Of a DNA stretch of 64,000 nucleotides, positions 19,748-37,467 are shown piece after piece. The position numbers and the translations under genes were made by a program. Location: assembly GCA_026398175.1 (NCBI GenBank), contig JAPLTJ010000121.1, positions 3,357-67,356 of the forward strand, written 5' to 3'. The notes beneath the pieces are model-generated. The model was not told the DNA's origin. It worked only from the letters and a program-made list of their open reading frames with translations, and did no database searches. Position 1 is the first letter of the stretch; each line of letters opens with the position of its first letter. The DNA comes from Verrucomicrobiia bacterium (GTDB lineage: Bacteria; Verrucomicrobiota; Verrucomicrobiia; Chthoniobacterales; UBA6821).

Positions 19748-19776
19748 TTGACATTGCCGTTTGTATCAGTTAGCAC
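19748..19776 (+). promoter_or_regulatory. Candidate promoter of TA cassette A (TTGACA-N17-TAGCAC, 6 nt before the ATG)
   Basis: The same geometry recurs at cassettes B and C. Confidence 0.45.
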
Positions 19777-19782
19777 TACGAC

Positions 19783-19974
19783 ATGATGATGACTGAACAA
19801 CACACTGCAACTTTAGTGCAATCAAATACAAAAGAATGCGATTCCTTTGATGGCGCTAGTTATAAGGCTGAGTTAATTGCTGCAATTGAGGAGTCAAGAG
19901 CTGCAATAAGACGAGGAGAATTTTTCACCCTTGAGGAAATTGAAAAAGAAATTCCTTCATGGATTATCGGATAA
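19783..19974 (+). CDS. Antitoxin of ParE-type TA cassette A
   Basis: Small acidic protein that overlaps the toxin start by 16 nt. Its C-terminal motif AAIEE..A.IRRGEF.TLEEI.KE..SW is shared with cassettes B and C. Confidence 0.75.
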   Translation: MMMTEQHTATLVQSNTKECDSFDGASYKAELIAAIEESRAAIRRGEFFTLEEIEKEIPSWIIG

Positions 19975-20255
19975 TCTTGTCTCCTTCGGCTCGACGCGAT
20001 CTTAGAAATATCATTCATTATATTTCTCTTGATTCCCGTATAGCAGCTGAGCGTTTTGCAGTATTTCTGAGTTCAAGAACTCAAATACTTAAAAAGCATC
20101 CTGAAATAGGACGTGTTTTTCCTGAGGTTGGAGACGTTAGAATAAGGGAAATTATTGTGAAGAGTTATCGAGTGATTTACGAAATCAATTTTTTGAAAAA
20201 GCAAATTGAAATTCATCACTATTGGCACGCAGCTCGAGGGACTCCTGAAATTTAA
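19959..20255 (+). CDS. RelE/ParE-family toxin (cassette A)
   Basis: 98 aa with SPSARRDLRNI, HPEIGR, YRVIYE and the ParE-typical HYWHAARG. Confidence 0.85.
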   Translation: MDYRIILSPSARRDLRNIIHYISLDSRIAAERFAVFLSSRTQILKKHPEIGRVFPEVGDVRIREIIVKSYRVIYEINFLKKQIEIHHYWHAARGTPEI

Positions 20256-20260
20256 AATTC

Positions 20261-22913: not shown

Positions 22914-22938
22914 CATGCTATAAAAGATCTGTTAGTAC
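22910..22938 (+). promoter_or_regulatory. Candidate promoter of TA cassette B (TTGACA-N17-TAGTAC)
   Basis: The TGA stop of the ABC gene (22911-22913) lies inside the TTGACA hexamer. The -10-like element ends 6 nt before the ATG. Confidence 0.45.
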
Positions 22939-22944
22939 GAATAC

Positions 22945-23151
22945 ATGATGATGACTAAACTAGAAACAACAGAAAAAATCGAAAATCGTTTTCTAGTAGG
23001 TCAGCCATGCGAAGATGACTCTATCGATGCTGCTGACTATCAAAAGAAATTTATTGCGGCAGTTGAGGAGGGGTTGGCTGAGCTTGATCGCGGAGAGTTT
23101 GTTACTCTTGAAGAAATTAAAAAAGAATTTTCTTCATGGGGTACGAGATAA
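22945..23151 (+). CDS. Antitoxin of ParE-type TA cassette B
   Basis: Paralog of 19783..19974, with a 16-nt overlap with its toxin. Confidence 0.75.
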   Translation: MMMTKLETTEKIENRFLVGQPCEDDSIDAADYQKKFIAAVEEGLAELDRGEFVTLEEIKKEFSSWGTR

Positions 23152-23432
23152 TTTTTTCTCCTCGAGCTCAACGCGACCTCAGAAATATTAAGCGTTATAT
23201 TTCTGTTTACTCTTTTCAAGTGGCAGAACGTTTCTGTCAAAAGCTTGTAGCAAAAACAGAGGTGCTTGAAGTTCATCCAGAGATAGGACGCATGGTTCCT
23301 AGTTTTGCTAGTCGTTCATTGCGAGAAATTATTGTTGGAAATTATCGGGTGATTTATAGAGTTGATCTTTTGGCTAAACAAATTGAAATTATTCGCTATT
23401 GGCACGCTGCACGAGGAATTCCTGAAATTTGA
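23136..23432 (+). CDS. RelE/ParE-family toxin (cassette B)
   Basis: Paralog of 19959..20255 (SPRAQRDLRNI, HPEIGR, YRVIYR, RYWHAARG). Confidence 0.85.
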   Translation: MGYEIIFSPRAQRDLRNIKRYISVYSFQVAERFCQKLVAKTEVLEVHPEIGRMVPSFASRSLREIIVGNYRVIYRVDLLAKQIEIIRYWHAARGIPEI

Positions 23433-23498
23433 AGATGTGCAGCAAGATTCTTTGTTTGAAGGTTGTTCATCTGGATAGCCAGGTGCTAAGCTGATCGG

Positions 23499-24266
23499 AT
23501 GAAATGTGTCATTTTAGCAGGTGGCCTTGGAACCCGCATTAGCGAAGAGACGGTGCTCAAGCCAAAACCAATGGTAGAAATCGGAGGGAAACCCCTTCTT
23601 TGGCATGTGATGAAAATTTATTCCGCACATGGTATTAACGACTTCATTATCTGTGCTGGCTACAAGGGATATTTGATCAAAGAATATTTTGCTAACTATT
23701 TTCTGCACATGTCAGATGTTACTTTTGACATCAAAGAAAATAGTATGGAGGTTCATGAGCGTTATGCTGAGCCATGGAAAGTGACCGTTGTGGATACGGG
23801 AGAGGAGACGATGACAGGAGGGCGTTTAAAAAAAGTGGCTCGTTATCTGGGAACCGAGACGTTTTGTATGACCTATGGTGATGGAGTGGGAGATGTTGAT
23901 ATTACAAAAGTTTTAGAAGCACATCGACGAGGAAAGCGTAAAGCCACGATCACCGCAGTGCAGCCACCTGGGCGCTTTGGAGCGTTGCACCTAGAACACG
24001 ATACCGTTACTCATTTTATTGAAAAGCCAGAGGGTGATGGAGCCTGGATTAATGGGGGATTTTTTGTTTTAGAGCCAGAGGTGCTCTCCTACATTGAGCA
24101 TGATCAAATAATTTGGGAGCGAGAGCCTCTTCAAAGATTGGCAAAAGAAAAAGAATTGAATTCCTACCAACATCATGGTTTTTGGCAGCCGATGGACAGC
24201 CTTCGTGACAAGCAACTCCTCGAACAGCTGTGGAATAAGGGGCAGGCTCCTTGGAAAATTTGGTAA
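23499..24266 (+). CDS. rfbF: Glucose-1-phosphate cytidylyltransferase
   Basis: [34 protein letters not shown], and the length and C-terminus are typical of RfbF/DdhA. Confidence 0.93.
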
Positions 24267-24316
24267 GAAGAAATTTAACCGCGAAATACGCGAAAAAACG
24301 TAATCAACATCACTGG

Positions 24317-24606
24317 TGTCCAAAATAAAATTACTCGCATGCTATGCGTATGACTTTTCTGAAAAAGCAGGAGTATCTTATTTCAGTGCTACTCAGCAAT
24401 CCTAGTAACCGTCATTCCAGCGGACGCTGGAATCCAGGCGAAGGTCAATTCAGATTTGATCGCTAGCGTCAAAAAAATTAAAATAATTAGTAAGGATGAG
24501 AAAATACTTTTACGAAAACAAAAATAAAGATCGCCTCCTCGCGGAGGCGAGGACCCAGAAGAGACCACCAACCAGCGTCCGCTGGAATGACGGTGGTGTA
24601 GCTGGA
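24317..24606 (-). mobile_element. MITE-like repeat, copy 3 (diverged; one terminus missing), between rfbF and rfbG
   Basis: TGTCCAAAATAAAA at 24317. Palindromes at 24411-24437 and 24573-24592, plus an extra hairpin CGCCTCC-TCGC-GGAGGCG at 24531-24548. The centre matches copy 4. Confidence 0.65.
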
Positions 24607-24836
24607 ATCTGGCTAGTGGCGATTTTTCTTTTTTTGATGAATATACCTTTCACGAATGATTTTTAGGAATTTCTGCTTGTTTCTTTTTCCTCTGGCTGTG
24701 TTACCCTCGCTGACGTTATGTACGCATAGCGCTGCGCTCGGTCGCCTTGCCAGAGAAAAAAGCTCCAGCGCATAATTGTCCTAAAAATCATCCGCAAAAG
24801 GTATACGTTAGTACGAATTTAGCGGTTTGTTATTTT

Positions 24837-25961
24837 ATGATCTCACTTCATTCCCAGCTTTCTAATATCTACCGAGGCAAGAAAGTCTTTCTCACAGGCC
24901 ACACGGGCTTCAAAGGCTCATGGCTGGCTGAGTGGCTCTTGCAGCTGGGGGCAGAAGTGCACGGCTATGCTTTAGAGCCAGCGACAACGTCAGCACTATT
25001 TCATCAGTTGGATCTGGCCTCGCGATTGCATCATCAAGCAGGAGATATTCGGAATGCCTCATTGCTGAGAGAATCGATTTTATCTTTTTATCCTGATTTT
25101 GTTTTTCATTTAGCTGCTCAGCCGCTTGTGCGCTATTCGTACCAGGAGCCGCTTGAAACTTACGAGACCAATGTCATGGGGACGTTGCATGTTCTCGAAG
25201 CCTTACGCGAGCTTCAAAAAAATTCTTCTCATCGCATTGCTGCGGTGATGGTCACCACCGATAAATGTTATGAGAATAAGGAGGATCAGACTGCTTATCA
25301 CGAAGATCATCCTCTCGGCGGACATGATCCTTACAGCTCGAGCAAAGCGATGGCTGAAATTGGAACAGCAGCCTATCGGCGTTCTTATTTTTCTAACACT
25401 AGTTCTAATTTCTCTGCCGTGCATGTCGCTACAGCTCGTGCTGGCAATGTGATTGGTGGGGGAGATTGGGCAGATGATCGTATTATTCCCGATGCGATTC
25501 GTGCTTTAGAAAAAAAAGAACCGATCCTTGTTCGCAATCCTTCTTCCGTAAGGCCTTGGCAGCATGTTCTGGAGCCGCTCTGCGGGTATTTGATGTTGGG
25601 GGCTCAACTCATGCAAGATCGGGAATTGGCGGGAGCTTTTAATTTTGGGCCTGACCCAAAAGAAAACTATTCTGTTTCCAATGTGGTGACCGAAGTGCTT
25701 CTCCATTGGCCAGGCTCTTGGAAAGATGTTAGCGACCCTATTGCGCCGCATGAAGCAAAACATCTCAATCTCTCCATTAAAAAAGCTATTGAGCTTTTAG
25801 GGTGGCGTCCTGTTTGGGATTTCAAAAAAACCATAGCTCAAACCATCGAGTGGTATCGCTTGCATCATGAAGATCCTAAAACTGCACGTGTATTAACCCA
25901 GGAGCAGATTTTTTCTTACGAAGAGGCTGCAGGGATCGCCTTAAAAACTGAAATTTCATGA
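24837..25961 (+). CDS. rfbG: CDP-glucose 4,6-dehydratase
   Basis: GKKVFLTGHTGFKGSWL, the YSSSK catalytic motif and RPWQHVLEP. The start was chosen at ATG 24837 because the track ORF extends into non-coding repeat DNA. Confidence 0.92.
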   Translation: MISLHSQLSNIYRGKKVFLTGHTGFKGSWLAEWLLQLGAEVHGYALEPATTSALFHQLDLASRLHHQAGDIRNASLLRESILSFYPDFVFHLAAQPLVRYSYQEPLETYETNVMGTLHVLEALRELQKNSSHRIAAVMVTTDKCYENKEDQTAYHEDHPLGGHDPYSSSKAMAEIGTAAYRRSYFSNTSSNFSAVHVATARAGNVIGGGDWADDRIIPDAIRALEKKEPILVRNPSSVRPWQHVLEPLCGYLMLGAQLMQDRELAGAFNFGPDPKENYSVSNVVTEVLLHWPGSWKDVSDPIAPHEAKHLNLSIKKAIELLGWRPVWDFKKTIAQTIEWYRLHHEDPKTARVLTQEQIFSYEEAAGIALKTEIS

Positions 25962-27451
25962 ACTCAAAAGCAATCGAACTTAAAAAAGAAATTCTGCGTC
26001 TCACGCGAGAGTATTCCTCGCTCACCCATCAGGCCAATTTGCCAGCATGGGAGAGAGCGTCTGATTTTATTCCTGGTGAAACCATGATTCCGTATGCAGG
26101 TCGCGTTTTTGATTTCAACGAAGTCGAGGCTGCTGTCGGAAGCACGCTCGATTTTTGGCTGACGCTGGGAAAAGAGGGGGAAGCTTTTGAAAAAGAGTTT
26201 GCTGCTTTTCTTGGAGTTAAACATACGCTCTTGGTGAACTCCGGATCGTCAGCAAATTTGGTGGCGCTTTCAGCACTGACGACCCACAAACTCCCTTCGC
26301 ATCAGCGTTTGCAGCCTGGAGATGAAGTCATCACCGTGGCAGCTGGTTTTCCAACGACGGTGGCTCCGATCATTCAGCTAGGAGCAGTTCCTGTTTTTCT
26401 CGATAACAATCCTGCAACTGGAAACATGAATGTTGCGTTGTTAGAAAAAGCTTTTTGTGAAGGAAAAACAAAAGCAGTGATGATGGCTCACGCTCTCGGA
26501 AATCCTTTTGATCTAGGAACCGTCTTGGAATTTTGTCGTCGTCACAGTCTCTGGTTGATCGAGGATAATTGCGACTCACTCGGTTCCACCTATTCAATGC
26601 CCCTTGAGCGCGCAAAAAAATTGGGCATTACTGAAAATTCTCCAGGCATTCCGTTTGATGGAAAAAATATCACGCGGTACACCGGAACATGGGGTGACCT
26701 TTCAACGCAATCTTTTTATCCACCGCACCATCTCACGATGGGAGAGGGAGGTGCCGTAAATATTATCTCACGTCCACCGCTCAAGTCCTATGCAGAGAGC
26801 TTTCGTGATTGGGGGCGTGATTGTTGGTGTGCTTCCGGCAAGGACAATACCTGCAACAAACGCTTCTGTTGGCAGCTGGGCGAATTGCCAAAGGGATACG
26901 ATCACAAATATATTTATAGCCATCTCGGCTACAATTTGAAGCCGCTTGATCCTCAAGCTGCGATCGGACGTCAGCAGCTCAAGAAGCTACCTGCTTTTGT
27001 GGAGGCGCGGAAAAAAAATTGGGAGATCTTGCGCGCAGGCCTTGCTGATTTAGAAAAGTTTTTTGAGTTTTCTTTGCCGACCCATGCAACCGCTTGGAAT
27101 CAAGATGTCACTTTCGATTGGGATGATTCTGGATGTCAGGCTGACTGCTCTTGGTTTGGATTTATGCTGCGCGTCAAATCAACAGCTCCTTTTTCTCACA
27201 CTGACTTTGCGCGTTATCTCGAAGAGAAAAAAATTGGAACGCGGATGTTTTTTGGAGGAAACTTGTTGCGACAACCAGCATTCGTGCAGTTGAAGAAAGA
27301 TTGTCCTGAGGCCTTGCGTGTCTTGGGAAGCCTCGCTGGAGCTGATGACATCATGAACAGTGCACTTTTTTTAGGAACTTATCCTGGATTGACGCAAGCG
27401 ATGTTGGAGTATGAAATTAAGATGATTCATGAGTTTTGCCTTCCTTCTTGA
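25958..27451 (+). CDS. rfbH: CDP-4-keto-6-deoxy-D-glucose 3-dehydrase (E1; DegT/DnrJ/EryC1 family)
   Basis: ATGA overlap with rfbG. RfbH-type N-terminus, NSGSSANL, the DNCDSLGS region and a Cys-rich segment (CWCASGKDNTCNKRFC). Confidence 0.88.
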   Translation: MNSKAIELKKEILRLTREYSSLTHQANLPAWERASDFIPGETMIPYAGRVFDFNEVEAAVGSTLDFWLTLGKEGEAFEKEFAAFLGVKHTLLVNSGSSANLVALSALTTHKLPSHQRLQPGDEVITVAAGFPTTVAPIIQLGAVPVFLDNNPATGNMNVALLEKAFCEGKTKAVMMAHALGNPFDLGTVLEFCRRHSLWLIEDNCDSLGSTYSMPLERAKKLGITENSPGIPFDGKNITRYTGTWGDLSTQSFYPPHHLTMGEGGAVNIISRPPLKSYAESFRDWGRDCWCASGKDNTCNKRFCWQLGELPKGYDHKYIYSHLGYNLKPLDPQAAIGRQQLKKLPAFVEARKKNWEILRAGLADLEKFFEFSLPTHATAWNQDVTFDWDDSGCQADCSWFGFMLRVKSTAPFSHTDFARYLEEKKIGTRMFFGGNLLRQPAFVQLKKDCPEALRVLGSLAGADDIMNSALFLGTYPGLTQAMLEYEIKMIHEFCLPS

Positions 27452-27476
27452 CTATAAAAACTTAATCTGTTAGGCC
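27448..27476 (+). promoter_or_regulatory. Candidate promoter of TA cassette C (TTGACT-N17-TAGGCC)
   Basis: The TGA stop of rfbH (27449-27451) lies inside the -35-like hexamer. The spacing to the ATG is the same as in A and B. Confidence 0.45.
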
Positions 27477-27482
27477 TTTTTT

Positions 27483-27683
27483 ATGATCACTCAACAACCG
27501 CCGCCGCATACTTCCAGTTCTCATTTGGCAGAGGCTTCTTGTGAAGATCTTTCCTTCGATTCTATTCCCTATGATGTAGAGCTCGTAGCAGCTATTGAAG
27601 AGGCTCGGGCTGAGATTAGACGTGGAGAATTTATTACACACGAAGAACTTGAAAAAGAATTCTATTCATGGTTTTTCGAATAA
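27483..27683 (+). CDS. Antitoxin of ParE-type TA cassette C
   Basis: Paralog of the A and B antitoxins, with a 16-nt overlap with its toxin. Confidence 0.75.
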   Translation: MITQQPPPHTSSSHLAEASCEDLSFDSIPYDVELVAAIEEARAEIRRGEFITHEELEKEFYSWFFE

Positions 27684-27967
27684 TTGTCTCTCCCGGAGCA
27701 AGGCGTGATCTTAGAGGGATTCAACGTTATATTTCTATTGATTCGCCTCAAGCAGCTCTACGCTTTGGTCAACGACTTCTGAAAAAACAAGAAATGCTTG
27801 GAAGTCATCCTGAAATAGGACGTGTCGTTCCTGAAATAGGTAATCGAGCGGTACGAGAGCTTATTGTTGGAAATTATCGATTGATTTATGAAGTCAATTT
27901 TTTGAACAAGGAGATTGAAATATTTCGCTACTGGCACGCTGCTCGAGGGATTCCAAAGATCCGTTGA
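27668..27967 (+). CDS. RelE/ParE-family toxin (cassette C)
   Basis: Paralog of the A and B toxins (SPGARRDLRGI, HPEIGR, YRLIYE, RYWHAARG). Confidence 0.85.
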   Translation: MVFRIIVSPGARRDLRGIQRYISIDSPQAALRFGQRLLKKQEMLGSHPEIGRVVPEIGNRAVRELIVGNYRLIYEVNFLNKEIEIFRYWHAARGIPKIR

Positions 27968-27974
27968 TATACTC

Positions 27975-29177
27975 ATGACGAATAAAAAAAACATTGTTCC
28001 GCCACTTCTGCAGGAAGATCTCGAGCATGTCTTAACACACACGAAGCCCCTCTGGGAGCAGGTGCGGGGAGGTCGGATTTTTGTGACGGGGGCAACAGGA
28101 TTTTTTGGAACTTGGTTGCTAGAAACTTTTTTGTATGCCAATGACCAATTGAAATTAGGAGCAGAGCTTGTGGGGCTCAGTCGTAATTCTGCTGCATTTG
28201 CTGCAAAGGCGCCTCACATCGTCAATCATCCAGCGATTACAATGCATGCTGGTGATGTGCGTGATTTTATTTTTCCTAACCCGACTTTCACTATTCGAGA
28301 TGGCGATCTTTCTCAATATACTCGGCCTCAAAACGATTTTTTAAATCATTCATGTATGAAACATACACCGCATGATTTTAAAAATGATTTTGAGACCAAG
28401 TCCTCACAAAATCTCATCCATTCGAATAGCGAAAGTCGGGTAGGAAAATTTTCTCATGTGATTCATGCAGGCACAACTTCCAGTGCGCCCGTGCCGCCGC
28501 TAGAAATGCTGGAGACGATTACCCGAGGAACACGGCGAGCGCTTGATTTTGCGGTCGCTTGTGAAGCAAAGCGATTTCTTTTTGTCAGCTCTGGCGCTGT
28601 TTATGGTGACGCACGCTCAGAGCAACATCATTTTTCCGAAGAAGACCACGCGGCTCCCGATCCCATGAATTCTGCCTCTGCGTATGGCGAGGGAAAGCGA
28701 TTCGCTGAGCTGCTGTGCCGACTTTATCATGACAACCATCAGCTGGAGACGACGATTGCGCGCTGTTTTGCCTTTGTTGGACCGCATTTGCCACTCAATG
28801 CTCATTTTGCGATTGGGAATTTTTTACGCGATGCTTTAGAAAAAAAACCGATCGTGATCAAGAGCGATGGTCAGTCGCAGCGTTCCTACCTCTACGCTGC
28901 GGATCTGATGATTTGGCTCTGGACAATTCTTTTTAAAGGCCAGCCTTGCCGTCCATACAATGTCGGTTCGGAGCACGCGCTCACCATCAAGCAGCTAGCG
29001 GAAAAAGTTCACGACACACTACAACTCAAGGAAAAGGTGCAAATCGGAACCGGTGGTAAAACTTCATGCTACGTCCCTGACACAACTAGGGCACACAAAG
29101 AATTAGGATTGCAAGAGTGGGTGACAATCGAGGAGAGTGTTCGGAAATGTTTTGATTGGGCTGCTGAAATTACTTAG
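27975..29177 (+). CDS. NAD-dependent epimerase/dehydratase (extended SDR), candidate 4-ketoreductase
   Basis: VTGATGFFGTWL Rossmann motif and YGEGK (YxxxK). A low-complexity insertion of about 60 aa sits between HAGDVRDF and HVIHAG. The start was moved to ATG 27975, downstream of the toxin stop. Confidence 0.8.
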   Translation: MTNKKNIVPPLLQEDLEHVLTHTKPLWEQVRGGRIFVTGATGFFGTWLLETFLYANDQLKLGAELVGLSRNSAAFAAKAPHIVNHPAITMHAGDVRDFIFPNPTFTIRDGDLSQYTRPQNDFLNHSCMKHTPHDFKNDFETKSSQNLIHSNSESRVGKFSHVIHAGTTSSAPVPPLEMLETITRGTRRALDFAVACEAKRFLFVSSGAVYGDARSEQHHFSEEDHAAPDPMNSASAYGEGKRFAELLCRLYHDNHQLETTIARCFAFVGPHLPLNAHFAIGNFLRDALEKKPIVIKSDGQSQRSYLYAADLMIWLWTILFKGQPCRPYNVGSEHALTIKQLAEKVHDTLQLKEKVQIGTGGKTSCYVPDTTRAHKELGLQEWVTIEESVRKCFDWAAEIT

Positions 29178-30069
29178 CTAACTTACAAGCTATTTGAAAA
29201 ATGTAAGATGTGTTAGCTCCACCCCAAGCGTTCAATTTATTTAACGCAATAACATCAAAGCCGCAATTAGCTACTAGTCGACGTAGTGATTCTTCAGAAT
29301 AAAAATTGATATGCTCATGCCAATGGCGTTTTTTTAGTTGAAGCTCCATATCATCATTGGCATTTTGCATGATTTCTTCAAAGGGGACCTCAATATACAA
29401 TATTGTATTTGATTGCATAGCCTCTTTGATTTCTAAAAGTAAATCTGAGGGATAGGAGACGTGCTCTAGAACATGACTGCAGACAACAAGATCGTAAGTA
29501 GTTTTTGAAATTTCCTTTTTATCAACGAGCTTTGCACCTTCAATAGGTTGCTTGTTGTTGATTTCATAAATGTGCAATAGAGAGCTGTTGTTTTTAAAAG
29601 GAGTGTTTTTACCAGTATCTCCTCCCCAATCTAGTGTTTTTATAGGAGAAGTGAGAAAAGGAGAGAGGAACTTTTCTACTTGGTCTATATAAGTAACTCC
29701 TCCAGTTAATGTCTCATTTCGTTTTTTATAACCTGGTTCATAATGTTCCCTTAATTCAGTATAGTCTTTTTCACGATATCCCTCGTAGAGTGATGAGAGC
29801 TCTCTCTCTGAAAACCGTACATCTAAAAAAAGGAAGCCACAACTTGGGCAAAAAGTTGAATGACATAATGCATAGGCCATTCCTGTTGGAATAGTCTTTA
29901 AGCCCCATGTTTCATCGATTTTTACTGGTGCTAATCCCAATGCACGATGAGAAATAAAAGGCATTAATAATGCCGGAGATTTTTTGAGAGCTGTATTATT
30001 ACAACAAACACAGGCGGTAGCTATTCGTTCTTTGCAAGTGGACATGGAAGTTTTTATAATTTCAGACAT
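29170..30069 (-). CDS. Class I SAM-dependent methyltransferase with an N-terminal Zn-ribbon (sugar C/O-methyltransferase-like)
   Basis: CxxC...CxxC (CVCCNN, CPSCGF), DWGGDTG, and the VCSHVLEHV motif. Confidence 0.75.
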   Translation of the reverse strand: MSEIIKTSMSTCKERIATACVCCNNTALKKSPALLMPFISHRALGLAPVKIDETWGLKTIPTGMAYALCHSTFCPSCGFLFLDVRFSERELSSLYEGYREKDYTELREHYEPGYKKRNETLTGGVTYIDQVEKFLSPFLTSPIKTLDWGGDTGKNTPFKNNSSLLHIYEINNKQPIEGAKLVDKKEISKTTYDLVVCSHVLEHVSYPSDLLLEIKEAMQSNTILYIEVPFEEIMQNANDDMELQLKKRHWHEHINFYSEESLRRLVANCGFDVIALNKLNAWGGANTSYIFQIACKLAK

Positions 30070-30187
30070 GAAAAATTGATTGAAAGTTCTTATCTGTCAA
30101 ACAACAAAAATATATTTTAATTGATTAAAGAGGATTTTTATTAATGATTTGTTTTTTACTTTCTTTCGATCAAAAACTTTTTAACCA

Positions 30188-31984
30188 ATGATACGGGTCG
30201 CTGATTACATTATTCAAAAATTAGCAGAGCATGGCATCAAAGATGTTTTCATGGTGACAGGGGGAGCTGCTATGCACCTCAATGATGCTTTTGGTCGCTC
30301 CTCTCAGATGAAAGTGACTTGTTGCCATCATGAGCAAGCCTGTGCGATGGCCGCGGAAAGTTATTTTCGTCTCACAAATCGCTTTGCTGCTGTCAACGTG
30401 ACAGCAGGACCTGGTGCCATCAATGCACTCAATGGAGTGTATGGAGCTCATGTTGACTCGATGGGAATGATTGTGATTTCTGGACAAGCAAAATGGGAGA
30501 CGCTTGTTCGCTCTACGGATTTGCCTCTGCGGCAACTCGGCGATCAGGAGGTTGATATCGTGCAGATGGTGAAGGGAATTACAAAATATGCAGTGGTTAT
30601 TCAAGATCCTAAAACGATTCGTTATCACTTAGAACGTGCTCTCTACTTGGCATCTCATGGGCGTCCTGGGCCGGTTTGGTTGGATGTTCCGATCAATGTT
30701 CAAGGAACCATGATTAATCCTGATCAACTTCAAGGTTACAATCCACAAGAAGATCAAATTAAATTTGAAACAAAAAATCTGAGAGAAGCGATTCAAAATA
30801 TTGTTCACGAGCTTTCATCGGCAAAACGCCCTGTCATCTATGCAGGGACAGGAATTCGTTTGTCAGAGCAGTATGAAGTTTTTCTTGAATTAATTAATCG
30901 CCTGAAAATTCCAGTGGTAACAGCATGGAATTCCAATGATCTTCTTCCTGATGATCACTCTTGTTATGCTGGGCGTCCAGGTTCTGTTGGAAATAGGGCA
31001 GGGAATTTTACCGTGCAGAATGCTGATTTTGTCTTGGTATTAGGATGTCGACTCAACCTCCGTTTAATTTCTTACAATTGGGAGAATTTTGCAAAGCAGG
31101 CAAAGATCGCGATGATTGACGTTGATGATGCTGAGTTAAAAAAGCCAACATTGAAAATAGATATTCCTGTTCATGCAGATTTGAGAGAAGCGTTGCCATT
31201 ATTGCTAGAGAAATCAGGCGAGTGGAAGTCGCATCATGAGGAGTGGCTGGCCTGGTGCCGAGAGCGACTGCAGCTCTATCCTGCGGTGACAGAAGCAATG
31301 AAAAATGATTCTAAGGGAGTGAATCCCTATTACTTTTTTGATAAGCTTTTTGCTCAGCTTGATGAAAATGAAATCATCGCTTGTGCTGATGGGACGGCTT
31401 CTGTAGCGGCAATGCAAGCTGCCATTATTAAACGAGGACAACGTCTTTTTCACAATTCAGGTTGTGCCTCGATGGGATATGATTTGCCTGCAGCAATTGG
31501 CGCAGCTCTGGGATGCCCTGATCGTAAGCGCATCATCTGCATCGCTGGAGATGGAAGTGTTATGATGAATCTTCAAGAATTACAGACAATTGTTCATGAG
31601 CACTTGCCGATAAAACTTTTTATTCTTAATAATCATGGGTATCACTCCATTCGACAGACACAGCAAAATTTTTTCTCAAATAATATTATTGGTTGTGATG
31701 TCGAGTCTGGAGTCAGTTTTCCTAATTTTGAGAAAATGGCAGGAGCATTTGGATTGCTTTATCGGAAGATTGACAAACATGCCGATATTGATGAGGCGAT
31801 CAGAAAAATTCTTTCTCAACCAGGTGCTATGATAACAGAAGTGATGCTAGACTTGCATCAAGCATTTGAACCCAAACTTTCTTCACGCAAATTAGAAGAT
31901 GGAACAATGGTGACTGCTAGCCTAGAAGATATGGCGCCATTTTTAGCACGAGAAGAATTAGGAAAAAATATGATTGCTTCTTAG
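30188..31984 (+). CDS. Thiamine-pyrophosphate enzyme of the acetolactate-synthase family (YerE-like candidate)
   Basis: N-terminal Pyr domain, a middle domain and a C-terminal PP domain with GDGSVMMNLQEL...NNHGY. Confidence 0.85.
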   Translation: MIRVADYIIQKLAEHGIKDVFMVTGGAAMHLNDAFGRSSQMKVTCCHHEQACAMAAESYFRLTNRFAAVNVTAGPGAINALNGVYGAHVDSMGMIVISGQAKWETLVRSTDLPLRQLGDQEVDIVQMVKGITKYAVVIQDPKTIRYHLERALYLASHGRPGPVWLDVPINVQGTMINPDQLQGYNPQEDQIKFETKNLREAIQNIVHELSSAKRPVIYAGTGIRLSEQYEVFLELINRLKIPVVTAWNSNDLLPDDHSCYAGRPGSVGNRAGNFTVQNADFVLVLGCRLNLRLISYNWENFAKQAKIAMIDVDDAELKKPTLKIDIPVHADLREALPLLLEKSGEWKSHHEEWLAWCRERLQLYPAVTEAMKNDSKGVNPYYFFDKLFAQLDENEIIACADGTASVAAMQAAIIKRGQRLFHNSGCASMGYDLPAAIGAALGCPDRKRIICIAGDGSVMMNLQELQTIVHEHLPIKLFILNNHGYHSIRQTQQNFFSNNIIGCDVESGVSFPNFEKMAGAFGLLYRKIDKHADIDEAIRKILSQPGAMITEVMLDLHQAFEPKLSSRKLEDGTMVTASLEDMAPFLAREELGKNMIAS

Positions 31985-32032
31985 TTTGCTTGTTTTTTTT
32001 GCTATTCTCATTCAATCTTCAAAACCTTTTAT

Positions 32033-33118
32033 ATGATTATTAAGCGAGATTATTTTGAAGAACTTTTTGTTCTCGAGATGGCAAATAACCATTTGGGTAA
32101 TCTTGATCGTGCTTTAAAAATTGTTGCTGATTTTTCCAAAGTTGTTCGTTTTAACAATGTGCGCGCAACGATCAAGTTGCAGCTGCGTGATGTCGAAAAT
32201 TTTATTCATTCTGATTTTCGAGACAGAAAAGAAATTCGCTATATCAAAAAGACACTCGATACAAAAATGTCGCGTGAACACGTTGCTACTATTATTGAAG
32301 AGATCCGCCAAAGTGGATGCATTCCTAGCGCTACTCCTTTTGATGAAGCTTCTGTAGGATTTTGTGAAGAGTTAGAATTGCCACTGATTAAGATTGCTAG
32401 TTCGGATATCAATGATTGGTTTCTTATTGAACGTATCGCTAAGACGCGAAAACCAGTCATTGCTTCCTCAGGCGGTTCTTCGTTGAAAGATACCGATGAT
32501 TTAGTAACTTTTTTTGCTAATCGAAATATTCCCTTAGCCTTGAATCATTGTGTTTCGCTTTACCCTGCTGAAGATACAGACCTTCAGATGAATCAAATTG
32601 ATTTTTTAAAAAACCGTTATCCACATAATACCATCGGCTTTTCTACTCATGAGTATCACGATTGGGAAACAAGCATGGCTATTGCCTATGCAAAAGGGGC
32701 TCGAACTTTTGAACGTCACATTGACATTGAAACGGAAGGAGTCACTGTTTCTCCTTATTGTAGTTTGCCCCATCAAGTGGACTTGTGGTTTAAATCTTTT
32801 CGCCGTGTTAAGGCGATGTGCGGGCATCCTGGAACTGTTAAACGAACTCCGCCTCCAGAGGAGTTAAAATATTTGGATGCGCTGGTTCGTGGTGCCTATG
32901 CAAAAAAAGATCTTCAAAAAGGACATGTTTTAACAGAAGAAGACCTTTACCTCGCCATTCCTTTACAAAAAGGCCAAGCTTCTTGTCGTGAAATCATGAA
33001 GGGACAATCGCTTTTATCCGATATCAAAAAAGATGCTCCATTGATAATCGATCAAATTGATAGCCCTTATGCCTATGATGATGAATTGAAGCAGCAAATT
33101 TATAATCGAGGCATTTAG
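32033..33118 (+). CDS. NeuB/SpsE-family (sialic-acid-synthase-like) PEP-condensing enzyme with a C-terminal SAF domain
   Basis: EMANNHLGNLDRA, IKIASSDI and the FSTHEY motif. The C-terminal part of about 70 aa is SAF-like. Confidence 0.75.
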   Translation: MIIKRDYFEELFVLEMANNHLGNLDRALKIVADFSKVVRFNNVRATIKLQLRDVENFIHSDFRDRKEIRYIKKTLDTKMSREHVATIIEEIRQSGCIPSATPFDEASVGFCEELELPLIKIASSDINDWFLIERIAKTRKPVIASSGGSSLKDTDDLVTFFANRNIPLALNHCVSLYPAEDTDLQMNQIDFLKNRYPHNTIGFSTHEYHDWETSMAIAYAKGARTFERHIDIETEGVTVSPYCSLPHQVDLWFKSFRRVKAMCGHPGTVKRTPPPEELKYLDALVRGAYAKKDLQKGHVLTEEDLYLAIPLQKGQASCREIMKGQSLLSDIKKDAPLIIDQIDSPYAYDDELKQQIYNRGI

Positions 33119-33120
33119 TT

Positions 33121-34050
33121 ATGAAGCTCATTAGCATTGTTTCTGGTTGCTATAATGAAGTAGGAAATGTCGAAGACCTTGTTGCTCGAGTGGGGCAAGC
33201 AATGCAGCAGCAGCCTCATTATGATTACGAACAGATCATTATTGATAATGCTTCGACTGATGGGACTCAGGAGTTACTTAAAAAATTAGCTAAGAAAAAT
33301 CCAAAGTTGAAAGTCATTCTCAACGCTAGGAATTTTGGACATGTTCGTTCTCCTTATCATGGTATGATGCAAGGATCTGGAGAGGCGATTGTTTACTTGG
33401 CTTCTGATTTGCAAGATCCGCCAGAGCTGATTCCCGAGATGGTGAGCAAGTGGGAACAAGGAGCTAAGGCTGTTGTTTGTGTCAAGGAATCAAGCGAAGA
33501 AAGACCGCTGTTTTTTAAGATGCGGCGTCTTTGCTATTCCATTTTTGACCGACTCGCAAATGTCGAGACGATTCAAAATTTTACTGGCTTCGGTCTTTAT
33601 GATCGGACGATTATTAATCATTGCCGCAACATGCAAGATTCTTATCCCTATTTTCGTGGGATGATTTCAGAAATTGGTCTTCCTATTGTTGAACTCCCTT
33701 ATCGACAACTAGTGAGAAAAAAGGGAATCACTAAAAATAATTTCTATACGCTTTATGATGTTGCGATGTTAGGAATGACGAATTACACAAAAATCCCTCT
33801 CCGACTTGCTTCTATCGTTGGTTTTTTCATGGCATTAGTTAGCTTTTTTTTGGCCTGCGGTTATTTTATTTATAAACTTCTTTTTTGGGCCAAGGTCCCT
33901 TTTGGAACAGCGCCTCTCATTATAGGCTTATTCTTTTTTGCTTCGGTCCAACTTTTTTTTATTGGCATTCTTGGGGAATACATCAGTGCCATTTATACAC
34001 AAGTGCTCAATAGGCCCTTGGTGATAGAAAAAGAGAGGGTTAATTTTTAA
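33121..34050 (+). CDS. GT2 polyprenyl-phosphate glycosyltransferase (GtrB/CsbB/ArnC-like)
   Basis: SIVSGCYNE, IIIDNASTDGT and a DLQDPPE motif, plus two C-terminal TM helices. Confidence 0.85.
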   Translation: MKLISIVSGCYNEVGNVEDLVARVGQAMQQQPHYDYEQIIIDNASTDGTQELLKKLAKKNPKLKVILNARNFGHVRSPYHGMMQGSGEAIVYLASDLQDPPELIPEMVSKWEQGAKAVVCVKESSEERPLFFKMRRLCYSIFDRLANVETIQNFTGFGLYDRTIINHCRNMQDSYPYFRGMISEIGLPIVELPYRQLVRKKGITKNNFYTLYDVAMLGMTNYTKIPLRLASIVGFFMALVSFFLACGYFIYKLLFWAKVPFGTAPLIIGLFFFASVQLFFIGILGEYISAIYTQVLNRPLVIEKERVNF

Positions 34051-34066
34051 TAGGTTATCTATAAGC

Positions 34067-35020
34067 ATGAAAACAGTTCAGAAATTAAAATTTTTTCTTG
34101 TTTCATTGGGTCCAAGAAGCTTAGTGACCCAAGCGTTTTTAAAACTATATGCCTCTTTACTCGGTTATAGAATCTATTTTAAAAACCATTGTATTAAGAT
34201 AATAAAGAGTAAGAAACAGCTAATCATTAAGCTACGCGACTATGCTTTCATTCCTATTATCATGAAACAGGTTTTTGATAATAGATTTGAAGTTATTGAA
34301 CCAATACAAAGCGACGATTGCTTGGTTCTTGATTTTTCAATGCCTGCAACTCATTGCTATAAGCGCTGTGGAATTAGCTTTATGTTTCTTGGTATACCAG
34401 AGGATGATTCTATTGATGCTTATACATCCCTTTTTAAACCTAAGGAAGGCATGGTTGTCTTTGATGTTGGTGCTGGTGTTGGCTCAATAACGTATTTTTT
34501 ATCTCAGATGGTAGGAGAGCAAGGGAAGGTTTATGCATTTGAGCCAGATGACAAGAGTCGTGAATGCTTAGAAAAAAACATCATAGATAAAAAATTAAAT
34601 AATATTACAATATTAGATACTGCACTTGCTGGCCAATCAGGGATAGGAATATTTAATATGGATGGGTCTATGGCTGCTTCACTAGTTCAGGCTTCAATTT
34701 ATCCAAATACTGGAGTAAAAAAAGAAGTGGGAACTCTAACTTTAGAGGATTGCTGCCAGCGGTTAGGAGTTGTACCCAACTTTATTAAAATGGATATAGA
34801 GGGTTCTGAAGTTGAAGTTATTGCTCGTTCTTTAGATTTTCTCCAAAAAAACCCTATTCATTTTGCTTTTGATAGTTGTCATAAGTTAAAAGATGGTTCG
34901 TTTAGTTATGAACATCTTGAAAATCTCTTTCGATCTATTAATTACTCAGTGAGATCTCAGATGTTTTCTGGAGAAATGTTTACTTTTGCTTCGCCTTCCT
35001 CTCTAAAAGTTAGTTATTAA
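34067..35020 (+). CDS. FkbM-family methyltransferase
   Basis: VFDVGAGVGSITYF and IKMDIEGSEVEV. Confidence 0.8.
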   Translation: MKTVQKLKFFLVSLGPRSLVTQAFLKLYASLLGYRIYFKNHCIKIIKSKKQLIIKLRDYAFIPIIMKQVFDNRFEVIEPIQSDDCLVLDFSMPATHCYKRCGISFMFLGIPEDDSIDAYTSLFKPKEGMVVFDVGAGVGSITYFLSQMVGEQGKVYAFEPDDKSRECLEKNIIDKKLNNITILDTALAGQSGIGIFNMDGSMAASLVQASIYPNTGVKKEVGTLTLEDCCQRLGVVPNFIKMDIEGSEVEVIARSLDFLQKNPIHFAFDSCHKLKDGSFSYEHLENLFRSINYSVRSQMFSGEMFTFASPSSLKVSY

Positions 35021-35106
35021 TTTTCTATCATGAAATACGTGTGTAGGCTGTTAATAGTGCAAAAATCAACAACACTCGGTAGAAAGAAAATTAATTATTT
35101 AACTCA

Positions 35107-37467
35107 ATGAAGGCGCAACGATCTTTATTTATAATCATTCTCCTGTTTGTTGCCTTCATCGCCATCCTCTGGCTCTTACAGGCGCCTTCAGCAGAAGAAG
35201 CCTTTGGTGATCTTGGACGACTTTGGGATACAAGGCAGGGATTCCTCTCTGGTTGGAGTCCGCATTTTCTTTTAGGAAGTAGTTTGGTGATTCAGCAGGT
35301 TGCAATTTGGGTCGTTTTATTATCCAATTTGTCGATTGTCATTTTTGGGCCTCTGATTGGTGGACTTGCCGCTTTTAAATTGGTAGCCATCCTCTCCCTA
35401 GCCGCCAGTGGAGTGACGATGTTCTTTTTTGTTCGTCGTTTGACGCGGGATGAGACGCAGGCGGCAGTGGCGGCATTGGCCTATATCATGATGCCATCGA
35501 TCACCGTGGCAATGGGCATTTATGAGCATTTCAGCGTGACGCTTTGTTTTGTTTTTGTCCCTCTGATTTTGCGCGGAATTTTAGTTTTATCGGAAGAAGA
35601 ATCGCCACGAGAGATCGTGGGCCTCGGTTTGGCGGCTAGTGCGATTGCGTTGAGTTACACAAAAATCGCCGTCGTGATTTCGCCGATGCTTTTGTTGTGG
35701 ACGTTGGAAGTTTTACGATTGCAGCCTGCCAATGTTCGTTTAAAAATTATGAGTCGCTATGCCATGAGTGCTGGTCTGGCACTAGCGCTGGCTCTTCCAT
35801 TTTTGTTGCCAGCTTCACGAGAGTTTGGTTTTGCGGCAGGATTTTTATTCGATCCGCTAGAGGGATGGCAGCATCATTACGCTTTTAAATCAGCGCTGCA
35901 GTGGATCGATCTCTGGGGTGTTTTCATGAAAGGTTCCGATCCTAATGTTGAAAGGGATTCTGTGATGTTTGCCATTGGGTTGATACCGATGCTCGCTATT
36001 TCTTTTGGGCTAGGTCTTTCTTCTCTTCAAGAGTGGCGTCGCTCTTCCCTCGGACGTTGGTTTTTGATCTTAGTAGCTTGTTGGTTGCTTTCCATGAATC
36101 TGGCTGCTGGTCCTGACGGGATTCTTTTAGGACATTGGCATCTTCTAAAAGAGGGTGCTCGCGGTATGTTTGACTTTGCTATTCCTTGTCTTTGGTTTGC
36201 TCTTGCTTGGCTGGTCTGGATGAGTTATCAGACCATCTGTTGTCTTATTGGAGGTAAAGCATGGCGCTCTTGGTTGTTGTTGGCCGTATTTTTGGCAACG
36301 CCATTTTTTCGTATCGCTGCAGCATTTCCTCTTTTTAACGACATTCGCGCCCCGGAATCATTTTGGAGCGTTGGTGGTTTTTGTGTCTTAGCAGCAGCTG
36401 TTGGGATGGTGACTGTAGCACTTTTTACAAAAGTTATTTCAACGCGATTTCGTCTTATCAGTGCCATCGGTATTGGTCTTCTTTTTTTATTGGAGCTTTA
36501 TCCGATTCACTCTGCTTATTGGACTCGTGGTCTTCCTGAAGAATTATTTTCTGATTACGATCAATCACTCACATTTTTAAAAAATGCTCCGTTGCCAGGT
36601 CGCGTGCATCCTCTTTGTAGTCGCTATTTTTACTTAACCATTCCTCAGAAGACGGGCCACTCTCTCAGCACCGAAGCGCTTCTTCGGCACTTTGAATTAA
36701 AATGGGTCAGGCATTTTGAGGCTGCGGGCGCAGCTAATATGGATGCGATGCAAAGCTATCTGAATCTTGCTGGCGTTTCTTATATTTTCATCGATAAAGA
36801 AGATCCACTGACGCCCAAGCAAGCCCAGGATGTCTACAGGACGGTCTTTCCCGTTGTTTTTGAAAATCGTTCTATTGTAATTTTATCCAATGAAGCCTCG
36901 CTCTATCCTGCTTTTTTGGCACGTAATTTTGTTACTCTGCCTCTGGAAAGCTACCAGCAGGCTCCGATGGCGTTGCAGTTAGCAAGGATGAATCTCCTTG
37001 GAGTAGAGCTTGCGCAAAGTGATCAAAGGCAGACTGGATTTGCAGGAAGAGCTACTGGAAATAATCAGGTGGAGCTTCTTCCTCAATATCAAGGCCGCGG
37101 TGGCGCTCCTTTTCAGCGTGTGGCGTCTGTTGGTAATCGGGCTGATGACTATGGAAAGATGACCTATCGTTTGCCGCCTACTGTTTCAGGGTGGCTAACA
37201 GTTACTGAGGTCTTTCATCCAGATTGGACTGCAACTATCGATGGGCAGCCAGCTGATATTCATCGTGCTGCTGCTGCACTGCTTTCTGTCTATGTGCCAC
37301 TCGGGTCTCAAGAAATTATTTTTAAATTTATTCAACCTGCTTGGTATGCGCTTTTGTTTTATTTAGGATGCTTCTTTTGGTTGATAGCGCTAGGTGCCTT
37401 TTTGTTTTTTGCCAGTCGCTGGGCTAGGCCTGAATGGAAGAAACTTTGGGATGGAACAACCAGGTAG
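35107..37467 (+). CDS. Large polytopic membrane protein, YfhO-like GT-C glycosyltransferase candidate
   Basis: More than 12 N-terminal TM helices, a soluble domain of about 270 aa and a terminal TM helix. This is the YfhO architecture. The call is by topology only. Confidence 0.5.
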   Translation: MKAQRSLFIIILLFVAFIAILWLLQAPSAEEAFGDLGRLWDTRQGFLSGWSPHFLLGSSLVIQQVAIWVVLLSNLSIVIFGPLIGGLAAFKLVAILSLAASGVTMFFFVRRLTRDETQAAVAALAYIMMPSITVAMGIYEHFSVTLCFVFVPLILRGILVLSEEESPREIVGLGLAASAIALSYTKIAVVISPMLLLWTLEVLRLQPANVRLKIMSRYAMSAGLALALALPFLLPASREFGFAAGFLFDPLEGWQHHYAFKSALQWIDLWGVFMKGSDPNVERDSVMFAIGLIPMLAISFGLGLSSLQEWRRSSLGRWFLILVACWLLSMNLAAGPDGILLGHWHLLKEGARGMFDFAIPCLWFALAWLVWMSYQTICCLIGGKAWRSWLLLAVFLATPFFRIAAAFPLFNDIRAPESFWSVGGFCVLAAAVGMVTVALFTKVISTRFRLISAIGIGLLFLLELYPIHSAYWTRGLPEELFSDYDQSLTFLKNAPLPGRVHPLCSRYFYLTIPQKTGHSLSTEALLRHFELKWVRHFEAAGAANMDAMQSYLNLAGVSYIFIDKEDPLTPKQAQDVYRTVFPVVFENRSIVILSNEASLYPAFLARNFVTLPLESYQQAPMALQLARMNLLGVELAQSDQRQTGFAGRATGNNQVELLPQYQGRGGAPFQRVASVGNRADDYGKMTYRLPPTVSGWLTVTEVFHPDWTATIDGQPADIHRAAAALLSVYVPLGSQEIIFKFIQPAWYALLFYLGCFFWLIALGAFLFFASRWARPEWKKLWDGTTR

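Follow-up and report, generated by a model that had tools for sequence, protein, structure and literature searches.

The DNA analysed here (the window) is a stretch of 64,000 nucleotides from a Verrucomicrobiia bacterium (assembly GCA_026398175.1, contig JAPLTJ010000121.1, positions 3,357 to 67,356 of the forward strand), and the host genome is a metagenome-assembled genome (MAG) of 1.97 Mb in 186 contigs, 95% complete. Its proteins match best those of Chthoniobacterales and Opitutaceae MAGs, which places it in Verrucomicrobiota. The region under study, window positions 23499-37467, is a candidate cluster for a branched dideoxy sugar, with three rfb genes of CDP-sugar synthesis followed by genes for a short-chain dehydrogenase/reductase (SDR), a thiamine diphosphate (ThDP)-dependent enzyme, a phosphoenolpyruvate (PEP)-dependent synthase, two methyltransferases and a pair of likely glycosyltransferases (GTs). 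The genes were assigned as follows, with profile matches, bit scores and model cut-offs in brackets.

23499..24266, plus strand: rfbF/ddhA, glucose-1-phosphate cytidylyltransferase, giving CDP-glucose (TIGR02623, 458 bits, cut-off 300)
24837..25961, plus strand: rfbG/ddhB, CDP-glucose 4,6-dehydratase (TIGR02622, 467 bits, cut-off 278)
25958..27451, plus strand: rfbH/ddhC, E1-type CDP-4-keto-6-deoxyglucose 3-dehydrase, dependent on pyridoxamine 5'-phosphate (PMP) and a [2Fe-2S] cluster (PRK15407, 632 bits, cut-off 423)
27975..29177, plus strand: extended SDR, proposed side-chain ketoreductase in the role of YerF/ErwF (Pfam Epimerase, 116 bits)
29170..30069, minus strand: class I S-adenosylmethionine (SAM) methyltransferase with a Cys-rich, Zn-ribbon-like N terminus (Methyltransf_23, 64 bits)
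30188..31984, plus strand: YerE/JanthE-like ThDP-dependent carboligase, a predicted sugar C-branching enzyme (three TPP_enzyme domains, 114-126 bits)
32033..33118, plus strand: NeuB-family PEP-dependent synthase with a SAF domain, proposed maker of a 4-hydroxy-2-oxo acid (Pfam NeuB, 125 bits)
33121..34050, plus strand: GT2 polyprenyl-phosphate glycosyltransferase of the GtrB/ArnC/PgfS type (Glycos_transf_2, 88 bits)
34067..35020, plus strand: FkbM-family methyltransferase (TIGR01444, 87.5 bits, cut-off 37.7)
35107..37467, plus strand: 786-aa polytopic membrane protein, probable GT-C glycosyltransferase, YfhO/PTPS_related-like (weak YfhO match, E = 2e-4)

All pathway genes are intact, full-length open reading frames (ORFs). 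The original prediction for this DNA had named the three rfb genes, the SDR, the opposite-strand methyltransferase and the ThDP enzyme, and each was recovered to within a few codons. After the ThDP gene, four more plus-strand genes follow with short or zero gaps up to 37467, so that the feature exceeds the span first reported. The rfbG frame is open from a TTG at 24747, the ATG at 24837 being the likelier start (the TIGR02622 match begins at residue 41 of the long ORF), and its 3' end overlaps the start of rfbH. For the SDR, a longer ORF from a TTG at 27915 is an alternative that would overlap a ParE gene. An Rfam scan of window positions 19-39 kb gave no match.

The ThDP enzyme was compared with profile models, solved structures and homologues from the same phylum. 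It scored 343 bits against the acetolactate synthase model TIGR00118 (cut-off 538), far below the cut-off for every PRK model of acetohydroxyacid synthase (AHAS), and 237 bits against the sulfoacetaldehyde acetyltransferase model (cut-off 620). The top PDB match was JanthE (8RPH, 392 bits, residues 2-596 aligned), and plant, bacterial and yeast AHAS structures gave 170-240 bits. JanthE, from Janthinobacterium sp. HH01, is a characterised YerE-like enzyme that joins 2-oxo acids to ketones (PMC12188165, PMC12247030). As the best solved relative (8RPH/8RPI/8RPJ; PMC12188165) it shares with the window enzyme a C-terminal tail that runs past the end of the AHAS alignments. Alignment of the two placed the HEQ glutamate and a canonical GDG motif in the window enzyme, whereas JanthE has an unusual CDG as its ThDP motif. 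Across 150 sampled genomes of the phylum the matches were bimodal, with about 25 genomes holding a 40-50% identical orthologue and most holding a 28-34% identical protein. The eight weaker matches that were retrieved were all true AHAS (TIGR00118, 661-748 bits), five of them from genomes that also held the orthologue. A tree computed with IQ-TREE split 17 cassette enzymes, the window's included, from 8 AHAS by a long branch (SH-aLRT 93 and 99). The enzyme thus stands apart from bona fide acetolactate synthases and does not match sulfoacetaldehyde acetyltransferase, the two competing identities foreseen in the original prediction.

Gene context was examined in related genomes. Around the 20 best-matching Verrucomicrobial orthologues, genes repeatedly stand in the order rfbF-rfbG-rfbH-ThDP-GT2-SDR and often overlap or nearly abut. 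For a wider scan, an alignment of 16 orthologues was searched against one genome per prokaryotic species, giving 80 loci at 46-67% identity from Verrucomicrobiota, Planctomycetota, Armatimonadota, Legionellaceae, Sphingomonadales, Bradyrhizobium, Rhodocyclaceae, Gemmatimonadota, Clostridia, Paenibacillus, Cyanobium, Saccharibacteria, Wolfebacteria and others; counts of context were limited to the flanks at hand, many contigs being short. Nucleoside diphosphate-sugar genes together with a reductase stood beside the ThDP gene in the window, in at least 15 of the 20 Verrucomicrobial loci and in 45-47 of the 80 loci of the wider scan. Across 100 related loci, which span more than 10 phyla, rfbF/G/H, an undecaprenyl phosphate (Und-P)-type GT2 and the same SDR recur beside the ThDP gene. 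The counts for each neighbour of the ThDP gene were as follows.

rfbF: 47 of 80 loci; 61 of 100 loci
rfbG: 47 of 80 loci
rfbH: 45 of 80 loci; 58 of 100 loci
GT2: 51 of 80 loci; 61 of 100 loci
SDR, in many loci directly upstream: 32 of 80 loci
NeuB-like gene, 54-69% identical to that of the window: 18 of 80 loci; 21 of 100 loci
homologues of the methyltransferase at 29170..30069: 4 of 80 loci
homologues of the FkbM methyltransferase: 1 of 80 loci

The linkage of rfbF/G/H and an SDR to the ThDP enzyme, on which the original prediction was built, is therefore kept across phyla. Family membership and this conserved linkage support the assignment of the window enzyme as a predicted YerE/JanthE-like carboligase and not as an acetolactate synthase.

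RfbH gave 410 bits against the solved Yersinia E1 (3BCX). In the alignment to that structure, a His-His pair (257/258) replaces the aminotransferase Lys, and Cys205, 289, 291 and 299 align with the [2Fe-2S] ligands. Among 54 RfbH homologues linked to the ThDP subfamily, the four Cys and the first His were invariant, and one homologue had Gln at the second His. Equivalog score, active-site His and four Cys ligands together point to a genuine member of the E1 family.

Two inserts set the window protein apart, one of 27 residues just ahead of the catalytic His-His pair (residues 214-240; lacking in 53 of the 54 linked homologues and in the Yersinia E1) and a second, shorter one at about residues 380-395. 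In other loci of the ThDP subfamily (L058, L059, L072, L073, L075, L078-L082, L084 and L101) rfbF and rfbG were seen with no rfbH within reach, and in part of the subfamily the sugar that is branched is probably a 6-deoxy-4-keto sugar rather than a 3,6-dideoxy sugar.

The reductase E3 that serves E1 in known pathways was sought in the window, in the host genome and in related loci. As originally reported, no [2Fe-2S]/flavin E3 lies in the window, and a search for an AscD/DdhD homologue across the genome was also negative. By Pfam, the host genome held no FAD_binding_6 match; its one NAD_binding_1 protein, on contig C54, corresponds to the FAD/NADPH part of a reductase resembling CysJ, its single Fer2 match is an SdhB-type Fer2_3, and neither Flavodoxin_1 nor a small ferredoxin was found. 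Salmonella RfbI, used as a tblastn query against the host genome, returned only the CysJ-like protein (E = 0.001), and genome-wide searches with the same query gave nothing at E <= 1e-5 in 17 of 19 cassette-bearing relatives. Run against the 100 loci, the RfbI query found an E3-like gene adjoining rfbH in 2 of the 58 that bear rfbH. When all ORFs of the 100 loci were clustered, no recurrent reductase, ferredoxin or flavodoxin family emerged; the recurrent families were HAD, HpcH aldolase, HMGL aldolase, 3-dehydroquinate (DHQ)-synthase-like, classical SDR, C-methyltransferase and GT87-like. A scan of the loci for the plant-type ferredoxin Cys motif gave scattered singletons only, and several of these were shadow ORFs lying over the ThDP gene. 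Absence of E3 is the rule for the cassette. In the host genome, an incomplete MAG, no candidate electron donor for the dehydrase step was found among E3, flavodoxin and small ferredoxin.

The two E3-like genes (L021:3793-4572 and L120:8143-8865) encode FNR-type reductases of 240-260 aa with NAD_binding_1, a weak FAD domain and no counterpart of the ferredoxin domain of AscD/RfbI. The RfbI query came from a Salmonella rfb record (Salmonella enterica serovar India, NZ_CP022016.1), in a gap left without annotation, where rfbI is intact between rfbC and rfbF (L044:5121-6095, 324 aa); the gene is missing from the plasmid-collection gene table, and the record looks like a chromosomal rfb region.

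A precedent for an E1-type enzyme without its own reductase is SpnQ of spinosyn forosamine synthesis, an E1 homologue and PMP/[2Fe-2S] 3-dehydrase that functions with no E3 of its own and receives its electrons through general reductase pairs with ferredoxin or flavodoxin (PMC8987622). It differs from the present case in its substrate, a dTDP-2,6-dideoxy sugar, and its actinomycete host (PMC8987622), and in its general flavodoxin/ferredoxin partners, whereas none were detected in this genome.

NeuB enzymes make a 4-hydroxy-2-oxo acid from PEP and an aldehyde. The NeuB-like protein of the window scored about 120 bits against the PseI and NeuB equivalogs (cut-offs 340-400). Its top PDB match was 3G8R 'SpsE', an uncharacterised structural-genomics protein (205 bits), and solved NeuB gave 78 bits. 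Both metal-binding His motifs are kept (STHE and ERH align with NeuB), as is the SAF domain. A search of the host genome for a CMP-ulosonate synthetase found KdsB as the only CTP_transf_3 protein, and the cluster holds no further gene of a nonulosonic-acid pathway. Because the His motifs are kept while the protein lies far from NeuB/PseI and KdsB is the only candidate CMP-synthetase, the NeuB-like enzyme is read as a donor synthase.

This reading follows the plan of erwiniose, caryophyllose and gastriose synthesis, in which a cluster aldolase makes a 4-hydroxy-2-oxo acid that the ThDP enzyme grafts onto CDP-4-keto-3,6-dideoxyglucose, the branch being finished by a reductase and sometimes a methyltransferase; the donor aldolases are BphI/HMGL-like for erwiniose and of the HpcH/citrate-lyase family for caryophyllose (PMC9306805). 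The families found in the donor slot of the 100 loci were distributed as follows.

HpcH/HpaI aldolase: 32 of 100 loci
HMGL-like aldolase: 19 of 100 loci
NeuB-like gene: 21 of 100 loci
no member of these families detected: 28 of 100 loci

No two of the three families occurred together in any locus. Cultured carriers are Sphingobium chungbukense DJ77 (L066) for the NeuB type, Bradyrhizobium canariense BTA-1 (L058) and Sphingomonas gei (L073) for the HpcH type, and Clostridium thailandense (L125) and Paenibacillus sp. P8 (L097) for the HMGL type. The NeuB-like gene usually abuts the ThDP gene, with a centre-to-centre distance of 1.3-1.7 kb in 13 of the 21 loci. The nearest relative of the window locus, L046 from a subdivision-3 Verrucomicrobium, is also of the NeuB type. 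On the ThDP tree the NeuB label changes at least nine times, so the exclusivity of donor families arose repeatedly and not by one inherited event. From its family and position, the NeuB-like enzyme probably makes a keto-acid donor longer than pyruvate; a longer donor implies a side chain of more than two carbons, and the product is then unlikely to be yersiniose itself. Of the yersiniose-like branched dideoxy sugar originally proposed, the kind of product is thus supported and the side chain is revised, being probably longer by way of the NeuB-like donor synthase.

Two variations in the donor genes of related loci were recorded. The NeuB-like enzyme at L037:10904-12478 is fused to a C-terminal cupin (Cupin_2, 43 bits), as in some other relatives, which hints at an isomerase as the source of the aldehyde substrate in those versions. 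Twenty-one loci (L021, L022, L057, L120 and 17 others) carry a DHQ-synthase-like gene, accompanied in 20 of the 21 by a classical short-chain dehydrogenase. The pair occurs with an HpcH aldolase in 13 loci and with a HAD phosphatase in 0 of 35, which suggests a separate donor-building module.

The delivery genes and the remaining enzymes were compared with known families. The GT2 scored 160 bits against PgfS and 117 bits against ArnC, both below the cut-offs, and has a hydrophobic C-terminal segment at 224-286, as is typical of enzymes loading a sugar onto undecaprenyl phosphate. In the 786-aa protein, residues 1-470 contain about 13 hydrophobic segments and one more lies at 744-771; its nearest Atlas clusters carry YfhO or PTPS_related, which is a lead only. 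The layout of a GT2 with a C-terminal membrane segment beside a large polytopic, putatively GT-C-like protein resembles that of the GtrA/GtrB/GtrC, CsbB/YfhO, ArnC/ArnT and PgfS systems; these known systems, however, load glucose, N-acetylglucosamine or 4-amino-4-deoxy-L-arabinose from UDP-sugars, whereas a CDP-activated branched dideoxy sugar is proposed here. The methyltransferase at 29170-30069 carries a CxCC...CxxC motif at its N terminus and is 25-28% identical to sugar C-methyltransferase-type proteins (Methyltransf_13/14) of related loci. Relative to its closest relative, in L046, the SDR has a low-complexity insert of about 69 residues (window 28290-28496, residues about 105-175).

Taken together, the region 23499-37467 is read, with moderate confidence, as a glycan-modification cluster in which a CDP-activated C4-branched 3,6-dideoxyhexose is made and attached to the cell envelope. 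RfbF and RfbG, assigned at equivalog level, would provide CDP-4-keto-6-deoxy-D-glucose, from which the E1-type RfbH would remove the 3-hydroxyl with electrons from a source other than an AscD/RfbI-type E3, as with SpnQ. The NeuB-like enzyme would combine PEP with an aldehyde or aldose into a 4-hydroxy-2-oxo acid. The ThDP enzyme, judged by family and linkage, would decarboxylate this acid and add the resulting acyl carbanion to the C4 ketone, yielding a tertiary alcohol with an acyl branch. The SDR may then reduce the branch ketone like YerF/ErwF, and both methyltransferases may decorate the sugar. By analogy with GtrB/GtrC, CsbB/YfhO and ArnC/ArnT, the GT2 would load the sugar onto undecaprenyl phosphate and, after a flip, the GT-C-like protein would transfer it to an envelope acceptor at the outer face of the inner membrane.

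The type of pathway is known from yersiniose, erwiniose and caryophyllose. As summarised in two accounts (PMC9306805, PMC12247030) of work by Chen, Guo and Liu (1998), the YerE/YerF path to CDP-yersiniose A in Yersinia pseudotuberculosis O:VI likewise runs through CDP-glucose, a 4,6-dehydratase, E1, C4 branching by a ThDP enzyme and an NAD(P)H reductase. Yersinia has a dedicated E3 (AscD/DdhD), uses pyruvate as donor and places the sugar in O-antigen; here E3 was not found, the donor is probably a longer, NeuB-made keto acid, and the GT2/GT-C pair suggests delivery by polyprenyl phosphate. Erwiniose (ErwE/ErwF/ErwI/ErwJ), caryophyllose (MMAR_2331-2333) and gastriose (MyGE/MygI/MygF), brought together in a 'unifying scheme', share with the reading proposed for the window a dedicated enzyme forming a C-C bond, ThDP grafting and a reductase, joined in some cases by a SAM methyltransferase. 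For erwiniose and caryophyllose the enzymes are pyruvate aldolases, where a PEP-dependent NeuB-family synthase fills the same slot here (PMC9306805). The locus thus appears to differ from the known pathways in its NeuB-type synthase in the aldolase slot, the E3 not found and an apparent GT2/GT-C delivery. A literature search returned no paper on the NeuB-in-aldolase-slot arrangement, none on a branched sugar in Verrucomicrobia and none naming both yersiniose and Verrucomicrobia. This fits the original view that such a sugar had not been described for this kind of organism, a view to be qualified in that in excess of 200 YerE-like enzymes elsewhere have already been predicted from cluster similarity, according to a review (PMC12247030).

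If the proposed pathway is true, a subfamily annotated 'acetolactate synthase' or 'thiamine pyrophosphate-binding protein' in Verrucomicrobiota, Sphingomonadales, Legionellaceae, Clostridia, candidate phyla and others would consist of sugar-branching enzymes. NeuB-type, PEP-dependent synthases would be a third kind of donor-maker in the aldolase slot, predicting undiscovered long-chain branched sugars. The textbook pairing of E1 with E3 would be the exception in such clusters, reopening the question of how E1 is reduced, and a surface glycan decoration unreported in Verrucomicrobia would be predicted. As envelope components of bacteria, C-branched deoxysugars are rare and antigenic, and catalysts for chiral tertiary alcohols are looked for among the ThDP enzymes that make them.

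Several points weigh against the proposed cluster function. PpYerE (5AHK), itself YerE-like, gave 230 bits against the ThDP enzyme, no better than AHAS, so that 'YerE-like' names a function and covers more than one clade by sequence. The tree comprised cassette enzymes and AHAS only, and YerE-likeness was measured through the PDB sequences of JanthE and PpYerE. The 28 of 100 loci without any detected donor family imply that some clusters can use pyruvate or a different common keto acid as donor, and a search of the 100 loci for a gene peculiar to NeuB-type clusters returned only apparent opposite-strand shadow ORFs. The electron donor of E1 was not found, the host genome giving no match to flavodoxin, a small ferredoxin or E3. 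Assignment of the membrane protein to GT-C rests on a weak match (E = 2e-4), and a flippase of the GtrA type was looked for in vain among the genes identified. The cluster is interrupted by a 570-bp spacer and two toxin-antitoxin cassettes. Finally, the related loci are kin and not independent samples, and the clusters of the subfamily are known from genes alone.

Pyruvate is a possible, if doubtful, alternative donor. A genuine sugar of the yersiniose type, its branch having two carbons (1-hydroxyethyl), would then be the product, and the NeuB-like gene would belong to the synthesis of a different sugar in that glycan. Pyruvate is used by YerE and accepted by JanthE (PMC12247030). Ten compact Verrucomicrobial cassettes with the order rfbF-G-H-ThDP-GT2-SDR have no detected donor-synthase family, and NeuB-family enzymes are otherwise known solely as nonulosonic acid synthases. 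This is opposed by the strict exclusivity of NeuB-like genes with both donor aldolase families, by their mostly abutting position at the ThDP gene, by KdsB being the sole such cytidylyltransferase in a genome whose cluster has no other nonulosonic-acid gene, and by scores far below the NeuB and PseI cut-offs. ErwE rejects pyruvate.

Less probable is a reading in which RfbH, for want of E3, leaves C-3 deoxygenation incomplete or acts as an aminotransferase, so that CDP-4-keto-6-deoxyglucose is the acceptor and a 6-deoxy or amino sugar results. It agrees with the failure to find E3, flavodoxin or small ferredoxin in the genome and with the several related clusters that have rfbF and rfbG and no rfbH, which imply use of a 6-deoxy acceptor in some part of the family; SpnQ, moreover, shows aminotransferase activity when its reductase is missing (PMC8987622). 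E1, however, had no such side activity in conditions that brought it out in SpnQ (PMC8987622). The His-His pair (in place of Lys) and the four Cys kept in the 54 linked homologues argue for selection for a redox-dependent dehydrase, and the missing genes may be weighed against a 95%-complete MAG in 186 contigs. Within the dideoxy pathway favoured here, an undescribed means of reducing the E1 iron-sulfur cluster was also considered, as a speculation of low probability prompted by how nearly all clusters around this ThDP subfamily lack E3. The ThDP enzyme would oxidise some of its 2-oxo acid donor in the style of pyruvate oxidase and pass the electrons to E1, or an unrecognised partner would supply them; together with a PEP-dependent NeuB-type donor synthase this would amount to a self-contained pathway for C-branched dideoxy sugars with long chains, unlike that of Yersinia in two steps. 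YerE is reportedly a flavoprotein.

Three paralogous ParD/ParE-type cassettes (19748-20256, 22910-23433 and 27448-27967; 65-77% DNA identity) lie in this part of the window, the second and third flanking rfbF-rfbG-rfbH. The two that were checked for ParE_toxin are these flanking ones, which stand outside the pathway.

22945..23432, plus strand, in the copy at 22910-23433: parDE-type toxin-antitoxin cassette inserted upstream of rfbF (ParE_toxin, 63 bits)
27483..27967, plus strand, in the copy at 27448-27967: parDE-type toxin-antitoxin cassette inserted between rfbH and the SDR gene (ParE_toxin, 66.5 bits; repeat family D1/D2)

The spacer between rfbF and rfbG (24267-24836, 570 bp) is non-coding, with no convincing ORF and no Rfam match. 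The G+C content of the 30-36 kb block is 0.39-0.41, against about 0.44-0.47 elsewhere in the window; this lowered value and the mixing of phyla in the ThDP tree fit a horizontally mobile glycan cassette. It is very improbable that the cluster is a decaying or silent remnant, split by mobile insertions and yielding no product. Two ParDE cassettes and the spacer do divide the rfb genes from one another and from the rest, RfbH and the SDR bear lineage-specific inserts, and the G+C at 30-36 kb is lowered; the genes, however, are intact and full length with catalytic motifs kept, and the insertions lie between genes and none inside.

The reading of the ThDP enzyme as the genome's acetolactate synthase, a divergent housekeeping IlvB by chance near sugar genes, was rejected as scarcely credible even though nothing else in the genome matches TIGR00118 better and no other AHAS large subunit was found there despite the presence of ilvC, since its score is 343 bits against a cut-off of 538, ilvN (TIGR00119) and ilvD were likewise not found, orthologues in other genomes coexist with true AHAS and form a clade of their own across long branches, rfb linkage is kept in many phyla, and the other searched genomes of the same order, two of about 0.9 Mb among them, hold a normal AHAS-type match.

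As the original prediction had noted, no ilv gene lies near the cluster: none was found in the window, and the sole ilvC of the genome sits on another contig (C121, 32556-33497), with no AHAS beside it. The absence of AHAS large and small subunits and ilvD from the matches reflects either loss of the branched-chain amino acid pathway or an assembly gap. Host contig C125 encodes, at L008:180-2845, another ThDP enzyme, indolepyruvate-decarboxylase-like (TIGR03393, 388 bits, below cut-off), directly followed by a gene for a ScyB-like tryptophan/amino-acid dehydrogenase (388 bits, below cut-off), and the two are possibly an aromatic keto-acid pair.

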